Shown here in pieces: positions 11 to 7,955 of a stretch of 64,000 nt of DNA (position 1 is its first letter; each line of letters starts with the position of its first letter). Source of the stretch: a phage; assembly GCA_022143435.1 (NCBI GenBank), contig GCA_022143435.1_3941.1; one strand, written 5' to 3'. Made by a program: the position numbers and the translations under genes. The notes under the pieces are model-generated. The model had not been told where the DNA came from and did no database searches. It saw nothing but the letters and a program-made list of their open reading frames with translations.

Positions 11-193
11 CTACCTGCACAATTCTAAAATGATTTTTCTTGCCCGACCTGAGCGGGGTCTGCACGTTTTGAAAATGAAAAAGCTCTTTGGAGATTACCT
101 GCACAGTTTGAAAATGAATTTTCTCTTTGGAGTTCAAAATTCTCTCTACAGATTTCTCTACAGAACTCTACCTGCACAATTCTAAAATGAAAA
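11..193. repeat. Four direct copies of a ~23-bp motif (CTGCAC-N2-TT-N2-AAAATGA; at 11-33, 59-83, 95-119, 168-193) plus tandem TCTCTACAGA x2 (144-164); non-coding region at window start
   Basis: Read directly in sequence; no ORF in the ORF track covers this region. Confidence 0.6.
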
Positions 194-263
194 AGCCCTC
201 CTTACCTGAAAAATTTACCAGATAAGAAAGGCTTAGGCTATTGTGAATATACTACAGAGTTTC

Positions 264-1049
264 TTAGTTCTTTGCGTCTAAGAAGGTAACTTCTGGTGAA
301 GAGAAGATTGCCTCGATATCCTCATCAGTTCTTGCATAGATATAAGCTTCTGCATCACTACCAAATGTTACAGCAATTCTGTGATTGCTCTTTGACAGGT
401 GGGTAACTAGAGCGTTACTTAGAGACATCTTTTCAACCGGAGGGTTACTTTGATGTATCTTACCTTTTCTTCGTCTGAATAGGGTAACTGCGTTATCTGT
501 GAACACTGCTACACCTGCAAAGTATTCTGGTTCACAGTAGTTCTTCCAACCTGAGCGTAACTTGTGGTACATCTCGCCTTCATAGACATACAGATAAACA
601 TCTACACTCTTCATCACCTGATTGATGATAACTGTGATGGCTTGAGGGTCAAGTCCACCGATACCTGCACCAATCATAGGTAAACCAACTTTCTTCAACT
701 GATTAACTTCACAGTATCTGTTAAGCTGTTTCAAAGATGACTCTAAAGCACTGTATCGGGCATCTTTACCAGTCTTAAGCTGAGTGTAAAGGTTAGCTAT
801 ACGACCTTGTTTTAAGCGTGCTACAGAGAAATTACCTAGTAAATTCTCACAGGGTTTGTGACCTATACCACCTGCATAGAGATAAACTTCTGTATCGGTC
901 TCATATGCTTTTGGGTAAAGTTTAGAAATCTTGTCAGCGATACCTGCGCCCATTAGGTTCATGCAGTTACAACCATGACCAATGATGTCAAACTTACCTT
1001 TATCAAATGCAGCAAAGATATCACCATTGATGATTTTTACAATACCCAT
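264..1049 (-). CDS. Macro-domain protein (ADP-ribose binding/processing fold) with C-terminal extension
   Basis: N-terminal GDI...DIIGHGCNC...MGAGIA and later GLPMIGAGIGGLDP match the two glycine-rich macro-domain signature motifs. Confidence 0.6.
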   Translation of the reverse strand: MGIVKIINGDIFAAFDKGKFDIIGHGCNCMNLMGAGIADKISKLYPKAYETDTEVYLYAGGIGHKPCENLLGNFSVARLKQGRIANLYTQLKTGKDARYSALESSLKQLNRYCEVNQLKKVGLPMIGAGIGGLDPQAITVIINQVMKSVDVYLYVYEGEMYHKLRSGWKNYCEPEYFAGVAVFTDNAVTLFRRRKGKIHQSNPPVEKMSLSNALVTHLSKSNHRIAVTFGSDAEAYIYARTDEDIEAIFSSPEVTFLDAKN

Positions 1050-1328
1050 TTAGCATCTCTCCCAAGATTCTTTATCTTCTGAAGGTTTTACACGTTGCCC
1101 CTCATGGTCTACCCAGATGCACCCACAACCTTCACAGATTACTGGCATTGCATAACCAGCTTTAAAATCATCTTCAGTGATAAGACCTTTTAAGTCACCT
1201 GTATCACGTCCGAACATTTCGATAGAACAGTCTTTACAGAAGTCAGCCATGAATAATTGCCTCTTGAATGATGATACCTTTACCACAACGACTTTTAAAG
1301 TCTTCCAATGGTTCAGAGATGAAGCCAC
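1050..1328 (-). CDS. Small Cys-rich (zinc-ribbon-like) protein; likely true start at internal Met (MADFCKDC, ~1250)
   Basis: CxxC...CxGC pattern; overlaps next ORF so internal start is more plausible. Confidence 0.35.
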   Translation of the reverse strand: MASSLNHWKTLKVVVVKVSSFKRQLFMADFCKDCSIEMFGRDTGDLKGLITEDDFKAGYAMPVICEGCGCIWVDHEGQRVKPSEDKESWERC

Positions 1329-3077: not shown

Positions 3078-3773
3078 TCAATGTTTAACTAACATGGTTT
3101 TAATGTGTGGAAGGATTCTGTTCACCTTCTGCACATTCTTCTCTGTGTCTTCTATAAAACATACTATATTAAAGTAAGGCAGGATGCAAGACTGAATCAT
3201 CCTCACTTTCAAACTTTCTGCACTTATAGAGTTAGTTCCAAAACCACGCATAAAAAGCATGTAGTCATGCTCTATGTTGTGCCTTAAAAACATCTCAGTA
3301 GGTATTCTCTGAGATTCACCTCTCGCTGTCAAGAGTCCAATGGCAGCATGATTAGCAATTGCATCAATAATACTAAAGACATACGTTGGTTTTGCTCTTA
3401 CAGAGTCAAGAAGATTAGTGTACTGTGAGAATGACCCATCAGTCAATTCCGTTGAGCAATCTTCGTGATTAAAATTTGTAAGAACACCATCAATATCTGC
3501 TAAGATGAGGTTACCTTTTTCTACAAGGTCTTTATTGACTATGACTAAGCTATCACGACTTACACCTATAGTTTGTCCAGTCTCTTTATCTACAACATTC
3601 ACAATTGGCTCTGATGTGTGGAACTCTTCGAGTGAACATACAACTTCTCTTGCAGTGTCTTCAAAATCCCTACACTGTTCTGGAGTCCATACACAGGAAT
3701 CAAGACCTAACTCATGAGGATGTAAGTCGTAAGCATGACACAGTACTTCATCAGACTTTTTTAATTTTTTCAT
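3078..3773 (-). CDS. HAD-superfamily phosphatase (possible deoxynucleotide 5'-phosphatase)
   Basis: HAD motif I ADIDGVLT; phage nucleotide-metabolism context. Confidence 0.5.
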   Translation of the reverse strand: MKKLKKSDEVLCHAYDLHPHELGLDSCVWTPEQCRDFEDTAREVVCSLEEFHTSEPIVNVVDKETGQTIGVSRDSLVIVNKDLVEKGNLILADIDGVLTNFNHEDCSTELTDGSFSQYTNLLDSVRAKPTYVFSIIDAIANHAAIGLLTARGESQRIPTEMFLRHNIEHDYMLFMRGFGTNSISAESLKVRMIQSCILPYFNIVCFIEDTEKNVQKVNRILPHIKTMLVKH

Positions 3774-4299
3774 GGTTTACCTTAGAAATGTTTGTTGCAA
3801 ATTCACATTGAGCAATGACTTTCATGTTGTTATAGACATCTTGAGAATATTTCTTAGCTTTAGGGATTTTGTACGAATACCCAGCATTATATGATGCTAA
3901 AACTTTTTGTAAAGTCTTCTTTGACTTTGGCTGACCATGCACCTTTGTCCAAAACTCAAGCTCTTTGTGAGTTTCCTTCGCAGCATAGTTAAAGTCTTTT
4001 AAGAGTTTCTTTTTAGCCACATTAGGACTAATTTTGTTACGCTTTACAACAGTCTTCAAGTGATTCTGGAAAATACCATAATCATGTGTCTTTTTATTCT
4101 CTACCTTCAGACCTAACTCTGACTCTTGTAAGGCTATAGCAGCTAGAGTGATACCCCAACCTTTACCCATGTTGTTCTCACCATACTGGTAAGCTTTTAA
4201 CATGTTTACTTTTTGGCTAATTGATAGCTCTGGGCAGTCAACTGCATAAGATAAGTGTGCTGTAAACATTAAGCACAAACCTAGAATCAATTTCTTCAT
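3751..4299 (-). CDS. Secreted lytic transglycosylase-like protein (SLT domain); candidate endolysin or periplasmic murein hydrolase
   Basis: N-terminal signal peptide; QESELG...DYGIFQ resembles the SLT catalytic E-S...G(L/I)xQ motif. Confidence 0.45.
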   Translation of the reverse strand: MKKLILGLCLMFTAHLSYAVDCPELSISQKVNMLKAYQYGENNMGKGWGITLAAIALQESELGLKVENKKTHDYGIFQNHLKTVVKRNKISPNVAKKKLLKDFNYAAKETHKELEFWTKVHGQPKSKKTLQKVLASYNAGYSYKIPKAKKYSQDVYNNMKVIAQCEFATNISKVNHEKIKKV

Positions 4300-4359
4300 T
4301 GGTTCTCCTGTTTAGTTTATCGTGACAACAATTATACAGCACTCTGCACAAAATACAAA

Positions 4360-4386
4360 TAAAAAAGGCCGCCGAAGCAGCCTTTT
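4360..4386 (-). terminator. Rho-independent terminator hairpin (AAGGCCGC-CGAA-GCAGCCTT) with T-run on minus strand
   Basis: Inverted repeat plus TTTTTT on minus strand. Confidence 0.55.
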
Positions 4387-5588: not shown

Positions 5589-7955
5589 TTAATCGTAAAT
5601 TGTAGTCCCTTCTGGAACACATTTTACATCAAAGCCTAAGAACTTACTCACTTCGATGGGTGACACTTTATTCCAATCTAAATGAGAAAGCAAGAAGTTT
5701 TCTTGTTTTCTTTTTGAAAGGTAGTTTGTCACCTTAATGACCATACGGTCACCAGCTTTCTTAATTTTCTTGTAAAGCTTTGTATCATTGTCAAGACAGT
5801 CTTTCAAAGTTTTCAATACACTAATAGTATAAGTGTATGCAAATGGTGCAGCAACGTATTGGATTTTACCGAACATTGCCTCTACAGCCTCTTCATTACC
5901 TTCTAAGAAGATAGTTTTGTTTGTGTCTCGTGAATAGCAATAGCCACGAGAAATATTCCTGTTATTGAACGTAAAGTTTCTGGCAATAATCCAACTGCTT
6001 GTAAGGTCAAGGACACCATTCATATAGATACGTGTCATATACCTGTTATGATTAATCCAATGAACATCAGTTAAGCTGTCGTTCAAGAGTTTCTCATCTA
6101 CTTCAATCCAGTCTTCTGGTATCTTTTTCCAATTTGCTTTTCGGAAAACATAGACTGTCTTCCCTGTAACATTAGCAACTGACTTGGCTACATCTTCTGG
6201 AGATGAGCAAAAACATTCGCCATCAACTGTGTCACCAACTGCCTTAATGTAAAGCTGAGGTTCTTCAATTGTATCAAAGTCCTCTAAAACCTCTTTATAG
6301 GAAGCTACACCTTCTGCTGGAACAGCTTTCCAGAGTTTTACAACACCCCTTACAGCTTCTTTGCGCTGGTAATGGTGCTCCTTATCAGACATTTTCACAA
6401 TCTTTAACAAGCTTTTATCAAGTTTGTGTAGATTTATTAAATCATCCAACTCTTTTTCAGTCGAGAATACAAACACAATACCATTGTATCTGTGGAACAG
6501 GCTTGACTCGTTGGCGTAGTCTCGACATGCACCACGCAAGATTTGATTGCGGCCTACAGTCTTTTCAGTACCGTTTTTATTGCGACGGTCATTAATCACG
6601 AACAAAAACTGTTCAATTTGGCTTTTACGCATTGCACCAAAAATATTGAACATGCTCGCCTCTTGAGTGTAGGAAAGTGCTGTTGCACGAATCTTACTCT
6701 CTAAAGAGTTAAACTTAACATAGGCAACTGGATTGTATAGGTAGTCAACTTTAGGGATATTGTTTCCTTTGCTGTCAACCTTAATATTACCTTTGCCGTC
6801 ACGTTCATAAATGACTGAGCCGTCTTCTGCGTAGATAATTCCACGACGAATGTTTAGTAATTCTTCTTCCAGAGAATCAAGCTTAACACCTCCCCACTCT
6901 AGCTTTGGACACACAACATTAAACATCTCTCGTGAGTTTAAGCGTAACTCAGCATAAGCCTGTGCAGCATCCATGAGTGTAGGTTGACTATTAACTTTCT
7001 TGATAACATCCTTTGTAATTGCTTCAGTTATCTTTTTAGTAGCCTCGATGATAACATTTTTTGTCGTGTCATTCATCTGCAATGCTTCACGAGAAGCTGC
7101 AATAGCAACTGAACCAATAGGCATGTAGATGTTTACAAGGTCTATGCTCCTGCGGAAAAATTCTGGTAATACTTTGAAGAAATCATCACCAAGTAATGCC
7201 TCCATATTAACTGGGTAGGCAATATTACCCATAACCACGTTAAACTCTGTTCTATTGCTGCTTGAACGCCAGCTATGCTTATGAGTCATGGCATCATAGA
7301 CACCTTCTTCACGAGCAATCACATCCATATCTGCTAATATATCATTATACTCCACATTACTCTCTGGTTTTACAGCAAAGTATGAGTATACATTACCAGC
7401 CTCTTCAAAGAACTTTGAAATACGGTGGTCAGCAACTGCCACACGTACAGCTAAACCATTAGGTTCTTTTGTTGGGTTAGTGGTCAGTTTAGTTACTTGA
7501 GGGATACCATTCTCAAGATAAACAGAGTACTTATTAACAACACCGTCAACATAGCTAGACACTGTGAATGACTGAGCAATTGCAAATGGTGACTTTGAGC
7601 CGATACCCATTGCACCAATGTAGTCATTGGAGTCATTCTTTGTAGAAGCCCCGTAGTTTAGGTACAAGCTCATAACTTTGTCATGAGTTAATCCAGTTCC
7701 AAAATCACGAACTTCAAAGTAAGGCTCAAAACGAGTAGGTAAATGCACATGGAATGGGATGTTCTCTTTTCCAGCTTCTTTCTGAGCATCTACTGCGTTA
7801 CATGACAGTTCACGAATAACTGCCCTTTCTTTAAATGTGTATACACCAGAACTCAAAAGGCTGAACATTTCAGGTGTCATTGTAATCTGTGCTTGAGACG
7901 TCTCTAAAGAAGTTGAACTCTTAATCACTTCTGCGTGGTCGTTTACCATGCGCAT
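5589..7955 (-). CDS. rIIA: rIIA-like protein with N-terminal GHKL (Bergerat-fold) ATPase domain
   Basis: GHKL N-box (ELSCNAVDA), G1 box (RDFGTGL) and G2-like GAMGIGSKS; size comparable to T4 rIIA. Confidence 0.55.
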   Translation of the reverse strand: MRMVNDHAEVIKSSTSLETSQAQITMTPEMFSLLSSGVYTFKERAVIRELSCNAVDAQKEAGKENIPFHVHLPTRFEPYFEVRDFGTGLTHDKVMSLYLNYGASTKNDSNDYIGAMGIGSKSPFAIAQSFTVSSYVDGVVNKYSVYLENGIPQVTKLTTNPTKEPNGLAVRVAVADHRISKFFEEAGNVYSYFAVKPESNVEYNDILADMDVIAREEGVYDAMTHKHSWRSSSNRTEFNVVMGNIAYPVNMEALLGDDFFKVLPEFFRRSIDLVNIYMPIGSVAIAASREALQMNDTTKNVIIEATKKITEAITKDVIKKVNSQPTLMDAAQAYAELRLNSREMFNVVCPKLEWGGVKLDSLEEELLNIRRGIIYAEDGSVIYERDGKGNIKVDSKGNNIPKVDYLYNPVAYVKFNSLESKIRATALSYTQEASMFNIFGAMRKSQIEQFLFVINDRRNKNGTEKTVGRNQILRGACRDYANESSLFHRYNGIVFVFSTEKELDDLINLHKLDKSLLKIVKMSDKEHHYQRKEAVRGVVKLWKAVPAEGVASYKEVLEDFDTIEEPQLYIKAVGDTVDGECFCSSPEDVAKSVANVTGKTVYVFRKANWKKIPEDWIEVDEKLLNDSLTDVHWINHNRYMTRIYMNGVLDLTSSWIIARNFTFNNRNISRGYCYSRDTNKTIFLEGNEEAVEAMFGKIQYVAAPFAYTYTISVLKTLKDCLDNDTKLYKKIKKAGDRMVIKVTNYLSKRKQENFLLSHLDWNKVSPIEVSKFLGFDVKCVPEGTTIYD

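Follow-up and report, generated by a model that had tools for sequence, protein, structure and literature searches.

Four direct repeats of a two-part motif, TGCAC-N7-AAATGA, were found in a non-coding gap at the start of the 64-kb stretch of phage DNA analysed here (the window), and the same array was present in every relative examined. This conservation in place argues that the array is a real functional signal. As judged from sequence comparison, it is a genome-unique, deeply conserved cis-element of a familiar general kind, namely iterated recognition sites. We favour, at a probability of roughly 40%, the reading that each copy is a conserved cis-acting site recognised by the same sequence-specific factor, which would most likely be a protein acting on double-stranded DNA. 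No description of the array was found in the published literature searched, and the genome paper of phage Felix O1 lists other direct repeats but not a TGCAC-N7-AAATGA array.

The repeat array and its motif

An earlier interpretation made without database searches (the sequence-only reading) had reported four copies of a motif in one orientation at the start of the window, together with a tandem duplication, and both observations were confirmed. Searching the 64 kb for the exact pattern CTGCAC-N2-TT-N2-AAAATGA gave four plus-strand matches, at 15-33, 60-78, 99-117 and 172-190. Each site has the same architecture, an 18-base, two-part core (TGCAC-N7-AAATGA) followed by an A/T run and then a C. 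The copies and the adjoining features are listed below; scores in bits refer to a position-weight matrix built from 70 unique copies.

14-39, plus strand: repeat copy 1, CC-TGCAC-AATTCTA-AAATGA-TTTTT-C; exact match, 33.9 bits
41-57, no strand: short G+C hairpin (GCCCGACCTGAGCGGGG) separating copy 1 from copy 2, read from the sequence
59-84, plus strand: repeat copy 2, TC-TGCAC-GTTTTGA-AAATGA-AAAAG-C; exact match, 35.9 bits
98-123, plus strand: repeat copy 3, CC-TGCAC-AGTTTGA-AAATGA-ATTTT-C; exact match, 36.1 bits
143-164, plus strand: tandem TCTCTACAGA duplication (143-152 and 155-164) within the 73-nt gap from copy 3 to copy 4
171-196, plus strand: repeat copy 4, CC-TGCAC-AATTCTA-AAATGA-AAAAG-C; exact match, 39.5 bits
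193-234, minus strand: strong intrinsic terminator at the end of the leftward operon from rII to the phosphatase gene, with TTTTTCATTTT after a stem of 17 bp
264-1049, minus strand: macro-domain 'phosphatase' gene (Pfam Macro, E=3.9e-7; synteny)

Copies 1 and 4 share 23 identical nucleotides (CTACCTGCACAATTCTAAAATGA), and the A-run of copy 4 forms both the 5′ flank of the terminator stem and the U-tract of the minus-strand terminator. Copy 1 is orthologous to copy b in Erwinia phage Hena2, and copy 3 is missing in genomes of the Si3/VpaE1_ev035 type. The 73-nt gap is about the length of two 37-nt units, so that the TCTCTACAGA segment probably represents a repeat unit that has decayed. In an alignment, VpaE1-type phages had other sequence in place of the hairpin GCCCGACCTGAGCGGGG.

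The motif is confined to this locus. With up to two mismatches allowed, only six matches were found in the 64 kb against 0.29 expected, a number that none of 100 shuffled sequences reached, and there was no match in the 7 kb to the left of the window. The sequence-only reading had proposed a search of the rest of the genome; when the matrix was run over a composite genome of ~87 kb, the four sites scored 34-40 bits and the next best site only 14.6 bits, with shuffled genomes giving at most 10.7 bits. The 14.6-bit site is a weak single look-alike (TCTGCACAAAATACAAATAAAAAAGG) at 4343-4368, which directly adjoins the rIIB terminator and overlaps the minus-strand promoter of the lysin gene, TTTGTA-17-TATAAT.

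Per-position counts in the 70 unique copies, numbered from the T of TGCAC as 0, found T0, C2, A3, C4, A12, A13, A14 and T15 to be invariant and G1, G16, A17 and C23 nearly so. The 7-nt spacer is variable but compositionally restricted, following an R-N-W-Y-Y-K-R pattern, and positions 18-21 are occupied by A or T only.

Genomic context of the array

The window belongs to Felixounavirus: its first 3 kb are 99.8-99.9% identical to Felixounavirus genomes such as that of Escherichia phage ekra (MN850644), in which window position 1 corresponds to position 7250. The window start falls inside a 520-bp intergenic gap which contains the array, in a region where all genes run leftward on the minus strand. 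The gap had been placed beyond the last gene of the leftward block, but this was an artefact of the window edge, as 13 more leftward genes lie to the left of it in ekra: the small early gene ekra_13, which is the left neighbour of the array, followed by 12 more small genes. The 62-aa product of the left neighbour had no Pfam match, and other genes take its place in other phages; the right-hand neighbour is the macro-domain 'phosphatase' gene in all lineages. Only residues ~25-138 of this 261-aa protein match the Macro domain. Its C-terminal ~100 aa (window 264-575), which adjoin the array, are missing from the 148-aa homologue in an 88-kb lineage (L068, see below), as well as from the distant homologues L039 and L040.

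From right to left, the gap is made up of the phosphatase stop codon, the terminator, copy 4, the TCTCTACAGA duplication, and copies 3, 2 and 1. The terminator at 193-234 is annotated as such in phage ASO1A and, with an A-run flanking its opposite end as well, looks bidirectional. Left of copy 1 and outside the window follow a G-rich polypurine tract, a conserved block of ~85 nt with a plus-strand TTGACT, an A/T-rich stretch, and then a minus-strand sigma-70 promoter (TTGACT-17-TAATAT) with a 5′UTR hairpin and the next gene. This promoter/5′UTR cassette recurs before many small early genes, whereas the TGCAC-N7-AAATGA motif does not. The 5′UTR hairpin (GGGGAGGGAATGACCTTCCCCAC) and its ribosome-binding-site leader are repeated at 90-98% identity before several small early genes (positions 1475-1532, 2056-2097, 3283-3322, 4125-4184 and 6744-6802 of the left flank, L001). 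These repeated leaders, and the terminator-promoter pairs annotated in ASO1A, resemble the mobile promoter/stem-loop cassettes of T4-type phages.

The polypurine tract (GGGGAGAGGGGGAGTAAGAGGGGGAGAGGGGTTGGG) is 39 nt long and located at L001 6955-6993, 8-46 bp left of window position 1. It has G-quadruplex-like runs on the plus strand and is C-rich on the transcribed strand. Most felixouna-, moogle-, susp- and kolesnikviruses have it, and VpaE1-type phages have unrelated sequence instead. Genes for RNA-end repair, encoding a polynucleotide kinase and the macro-domain phosphatase, were found near the array. The replication genes (primase-helicase and Pol A-type polymerase) are T7-like and located far from it, and one recognisable Cro/C1-type HTH regulator is encoded in the genome.

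Conservation in related phages

In all relatives examined the array was located at the same position and in the same orientation, just past the terminator of the macro-domain 'phosphatase' gene. Three to five copies were found in Felixounavirus, Mooglevirus, Suspvirus and Kolesnikvirus and in the 88-kb lineage, with the following spacings between copies.

Felixounavirus (FelixO1, VpaE1, BPS17W1): 45/39/73 nt
Felixounavirus of the Si3 / VpaE1_ev035 type: 45/73-75 nt, three canonical copies
Mooglevirus and Suspvirus: 45/41/75 nt
Kolesnikvirus (Erwinia phages): 39/37/37 nt
88-kb lineage L068: 38/148/36 nt

Besides the named phages, 27 IMG/VR loci and 14 metagenome contigs were sampled, and at least three copies were kept in all 41 of these Ounavirinae-type arrays. 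The comparison with related phages, also proposed in the sequence-only reading, placed the motif in the homologous region of all of them, so that the refuting condition set there came out in favour of a real element; where records annotate ORFs over the motif, these disagree in strand and frame. At 73-75 and 148 nt, the long gaps come close to two and four times 37 nt, which suggests a once-regular tandem array of ~37-nt units, some of which may since have decayed.

The 88-kb contig L068 (IMG/VR 3300045988_063805) represents a new Ounavirinae-like lineage whose genes are syntenic with those of the window and whose proteins are only 40-60% identical to them. At the DNA level it had weak local matches to database phages in 22 records, each covering ~2% of the query, and those among the matches listed lie inside macro-domain phosphatase genes of T4-like phages. 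When Felixounavirus and Kolesnikvirus were compared by BLAST, nothing in the 520-bp gap but the repeats aligned (query 273-375), and in the two most distant lineages the remainder of the gap had no detectable similarity.

Several further features were observed in the relatives. Si3 / VpaE1_ev035-type phages have an inverted half-site segment in place of the third copy, consisting of CTGTGCAGA and, ~17 nt on, CCTGCACA (L045 1090-1125; L046 960-995). In L068, about 11 copies of TGTTAA, 10-11 bp apart, were found just left of the repeat array (600-760 and ~905), presumably resembling a multi-repeat ArcA-P site, and a perfect Chi sequence (GCTGGTGG) lies inside the 148-nt gap of the array. Felix-O1-type intergenic regions were also found in the records of Staphylococcus phage SA1 (GU169904) and Campylobacter phage A132 (MG065664), with 96% and 88% identity, respectively; both records are probably contaminated or mislabelled.

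Recognition sites for a DNA-binding factor

The combination of invariant blocks, a restricted spacer and an A/T-only run is characteristic of direct base readout combined with readout of DNA shape. The individual site is asymmetric and in two parts; the starts of TGCAC and AAATGA are 12 bp apart, close to one turn of the helix, which would present both on the same face. Such a layout would be expected for a monomer or a two-domain protein which touches two successive major grooves and requires a narrow or bent A/T flank. The sites, all in one direction, are bounded by the terminator of the rII-to-phosphatase operon on one side and, on the other, by the promoter region that serves the cluster of small early genes. 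Their occupancy could give rise to a nucleoprotein block at the operon boundary, with insulation or regulation of the early transcription units, or the marking of a replication start, as possible consequences. The putative binder may be encoded by the phage, for example a Cro/C1-type HTH regulator, or may equally possibly be a host factor common to Enterobacterales. The sequence-only reading had preferred an iterated protein-binding site to an ordinary promoter, with a packaging or terminal element as one form of it. The preference for an iterated site held up, with invariant halves, a variable spacer, and a motif that is unique in the genome and subfamily-wide; the packaging or terminal form was not supported, the terminal repeat lying ~5.9 kb off.

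Some observations speak against sites on DNA. At 36-45, 73-75 and 148 bp, the copies are spaced irregularly and out of phase with the helix, which would be unusual for cooperative iterons, and no initiator-like gene is adjacent, the right-hand neighbour being a macro-domain enzyme and the left-hand one differing between phages. Compared with the iterons of the lambda origin and of P1 and plasmids, the array likewise has three to five direct repeats of a specific ~20-bp site, in the same orientation and A/T-flanked, in non-coding DNA at one locus per genome. It differs from them in its irregular spacing (45/39/73, 45/41/75, 39/37/37 and 38/148/36 bp), which amounts to unequal fractions of a helical turn, in having no adjacent or overlapping initiator gene, and in that the replication genes of the phage are T7-like and distant. 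T7-type origins are generally transcription-primed and are not known to be iteron-based. Uneven spacing out of phase with the helix, together with the missing initiator gene next door, would somewhat disfavour a classical iteron origin.

Known binding sites were also compared. The marbox, which is bound by MarA, SoxS and Rob, two-HTH monomers of the AraC/XylS family, has the consensus AYnGCACnnWnnRYYAAAYn. By eye, the array shares with it an asymmetric two-part site, GCAC, an A/T position three bases later and AAA about one turn off, and marbox sites are often direct repeats, as in the array. However, relative to the GCAC-N7-YAAA of the marbox, the AAA block of the array is one base closer to GCAC, and by eye four other consensus positions fail. 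By this analogy an AraC/XylS-type two-HTH protein may be taken as a lead only. Sites for IHF, Fis, CRP, DnaA, sigma-54, ArgR, Fur and NtrC gave no fit when their consensus sequences were compared by eye. The injection-stop region of phage T5 is non-coding and repeat-rich, but far larger than the array and of other repeat content. By position, the two may be analogous, as in each case repeats are clustered where a ~6-7-kb block of small early genes, beside a direct-terminal-repeat end, has its inner border; two-step DNA transfer is not known for Felix O1-like phages. The PhageMaP library for phage Bas63 targeted genes, hence its data are silent on the array gap.

A possible plus-strand repeat RNA

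A less probable alternative, absent from the sequence-only reading although it carries appreciable weight, is that the array encodes, on the plus strand and antisense to its neighbours, a small non-coding RNA. Its gene would consist of a promoter, three to five tandem repeats of ~37-45 nt and a hairpin terminator, and the repeats would offer an RNA-binding protein multiple sites for binding or cleavage and thereby soak it up. The special case of an orphan, toxin-less, type III antitoxin-like decoy directed against an abortive-infection RNase of the ToxN/AbiQ, CptN or TenpN type is rather unlikely. The plus-strand promoter in Kolesnikvirus and the conserved upstream TTGACT mean that the array sequence could act as RNA. 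In Hena2 (Kolesnikvirus) a strong promoter, TTGACG-18-TATACT, with 10 of 12 matches, reads into the array; TTGACT is conserved upstream in the other genera, and by inspection VpaE1-type phages have a TG-extended TAGCCT as the -10 element. However, the -10 element of ekra-type phages (TAAGAG) is poor, and although a hairpin adjoins the last copy, the plus-strand U-tract is weak.

A layout of promoter, repeats and terminator is also that of type III antitoxin loci. Published type III antitoxins have repeats of 31-62 nt in 1.9-5.6 copies, and the array, with units of 36-45 nt in three to five copies, falls within both ranges; the units of Kolesnikvirus measure 39/37/37 nt, and the long gaps of the other arrays are about two or four times 37 nt. 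ToxN enzymes were reported to cleave at AA^AU or GAA^AU, and TenpI antitoxins to consist of non-identical repeats with a conserved A-stretch. AAAU is invariant in 70 of the 70 unique copies and would provide an A-rich toxin cleavage site in each unit. ToxIN plasmids are widespread among E. coli, Salmonella, Klebsiella and Enterobacter, and these bearers are hosts, or close kin of the hosts, of Felix-O1-like phages. An RNA mimic of ToxI is already known from a phage, the pseudo-ToxI of phiTE, which shares with the array an intergenic position in a virulent myovirus. The RNA-end repair genes next door, for polynucleotide kinase and macro-domain phosphatase, would also suit an RNA-based function.

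A pattern scan of 185,579 species genomes found two genuine toxIN loci of Lachnospiraceae in which 37-nt ToxI repeats carry TGCAC-N7-AAATGA; however, these repeats share nothing with the phage units beyond the pattern searched, and the match may be due to chance. The two loci had previously gone unnoticed. They are located on contigs of metagenome-assembled genomes (L093 ~6583-7290, minus strand; L099 ~500-1145, plus strand), and in each a promoter, two 37-nt repeats and a terminator accompany a gene for ToxN (Pfam ToxN_toxin, E=1e-47 to 1e-50). Other tandem arrays that matched the pattern (L092, L138, L144, L145 and L147) had no type III toxin-like ORF downstream. No similar array was found by the scan in species-representative genomes of Enterobacterales, and BLAST searches of E. 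coli genomes and plasmids for homologues of the array returned noise only, the one recurrent E. coli match being located in an unrelated prophage.

Direct comparison with ToxI RNAs did not support the decoy. Alignment to the ToxI of Pectobacterium and E. coli gave no significant similarity (z < 1.7), and an nhmmer profile of seven enterobacterial ToxI arrays had no match in the phage loci, although it missed divergent true ToxI controls too. No Rfam family matched the array, but Rfam has no ToxI model and this null result is therefore silent on antitoxins. While the array shares with ToxI, TenpI, CptI and the phiTE pseudo-ToxI tandem repeats of 36-45 nt and an AAAU in each unit, and may share a promoter and a hairpin terminator, it differs from type III antitoxins in having no toxin gene, no significant similarity to the ToxI examined, and units that are ~65% alike, with only ~26 of ~40 nt in common. 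ToxI needs a pseudoknot core; in the array, alifold gave no conserved nested stems within the units, and no pseudoknot was evident by eye. Apart from the terminator, no conserved nested RNA fold was found by alifold on either strand. The plus strand folded no better than shuffled sequences (z = +0.5), and the value for the minus strand (z = -2.5) was due to the terminator.

Promoters, remnants, genome ends and coding sequence

Tandem promoters are an improbable explanation. In this reading NAAAAT would serve as the -10 element and the tail of the preceding unit as the -35 element; TAAAAT and GAAAAT indeed resemble the -10 hexamer, and a promoter scan called TTGCCA-17-GAAAAT inside the Hena2 array, the sole call of this kind. 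However, the second base of the -10 element (-11), an essential A, is G in the TGAAAT of 20 of the 70 copies (~30%). In Felixounavirus inspection found no acceptable -35 element 16-18 bp upstream of any copy, and no promoter was called within the ekra array. Furthermore, the invariant TGCAC would be located in the spacer, where it is not read by sigma-70; nor does the motif stand in front of any gene or recur elsewhere in the genome. Sigma-70 promoters in tandem are therefore not supported, given the wanting -35 elements in Felixounavirus and the G at -11.

The chance that the array is a functionless, decaying remnant is similarly low. Such a remnant could have been left in a mosaic early region, after gene loss, by tandem duplication or by terminator-promoter cassettes. 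The early region is full of repeated promoter/5′UTR cassettes, the left neighbour gene differs between phages, one unit seems to have decayed at 143-164 and one copy was lost in Si3-type phages, and the weak look-alike at 4343 is placed by another terminator. On the other hand, a neutral remnant would not keep 11 invariant or nearly invariant positions in every copy where proteins are only 40-60% identical and the intergenic DNA cannot be aligned.

A terminal or packaging element, whether pac- or cos-like or the boundary of a terminal repeat, is very improbable. Similar repeats flank the cleavage sites of some phages, and several metagenomic contigs and one GenBank record (LMP34) break 20-70 bp left of the array. 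However, Pr103Blw has a 581-bp direct terminal repeat, annotated by PhageTerm, at the ends of its record, and the right-hand one starts ~5.9 kb beyond the array's near edge, a distance taken from where the first gene past the gap begins. For phage UAB_Phi87, Bal31 mapping and run-off sequencing of the ends gave a repeat of 608 bp. The annotated and the published repeat place the physical ends elsewhere, and largely refute the terminal element which the sequence-only reading had considered. As to the contig breaks, they occur in or beside the G-rich polypurine tract, where a Nextera adapter is attached to one of them, or at the point where a chimera passes into E. coli-like host sequence, and are likely to reflect failure of assembly or coverage and not physical ends. 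Two contigs (L013, and L014 with the Nextera adapter) and GenBank LMP34 end inside the tract GGGGAGAGGGGGAGTAAGAGGGGGAGAGGGGTTGGG, and L034 ends ~35 bp left of it. In the chimera, L019 (IMG/VR 3300045988_004180), phage sequence meets non-phage sequence at the hairpin CCCGACCTGAGCGGGG (window 42-57), and the latter is, judged from its N-terminal translation, presumably E. coli mukB.

A small protein-coding gene is just as improbable. A plus-strand ORF is annotated here in some Mooglevirus and Kolesnikvirus records, the window has a 51-aa plus-strand ORF at 30-185, and Mordin_126 and Sf14_gp118 belong to PHROG 15689; however, with spacings of 73, 41 and 37 nt the invariant motif falls into differing frames within each array, the ORFs annotated over it vary in strand, frame and extent between records, and the plus-strand ORF runs opposite to all neighbouring genes. 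PHROG 15689 itself matched the two Mooglevirus plus-strand ORFs over their full length, and the ekra ORF over 19 repeat residues only (E=0.008). Because the copies are not spaced in multiples of three, a peptide does not account for the conservation; the frame analysis and the inconsistent annotations reject a coding function, and the region is non-coding, as the sequence-only reading had stated. The small ORFs annotated over the array in several GenBank records are probably spurious.

Significance for Felix O1-like phages

Felix O1-type phages are used in Salmonella diagnostics, biocontrol and therapy, and their replication origin, early-gene control and counter-defences are essentially unmapped. 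Of the non-coding signals found around their early region, the array is the one with the deepest conservation. It permits a test between an origin, a transcriptional boundary and an RNA decoy, and its 11 invariant or nearly invariant bases in each of four copies make a precise, mutable target for finding the binding factor. If the decoy reading were true, all Felix-O1-like phages (Ounavirinae) would constitutively have a built-in RNA counter-defence beside RNA-end repair enzymes, which would soak up, or be processed by, a ToxN/TenpN-type RNase of Enterobacterales, and its RNA would be far more diverged from known antitoxins than the pseudo-ToxI of phiTE.
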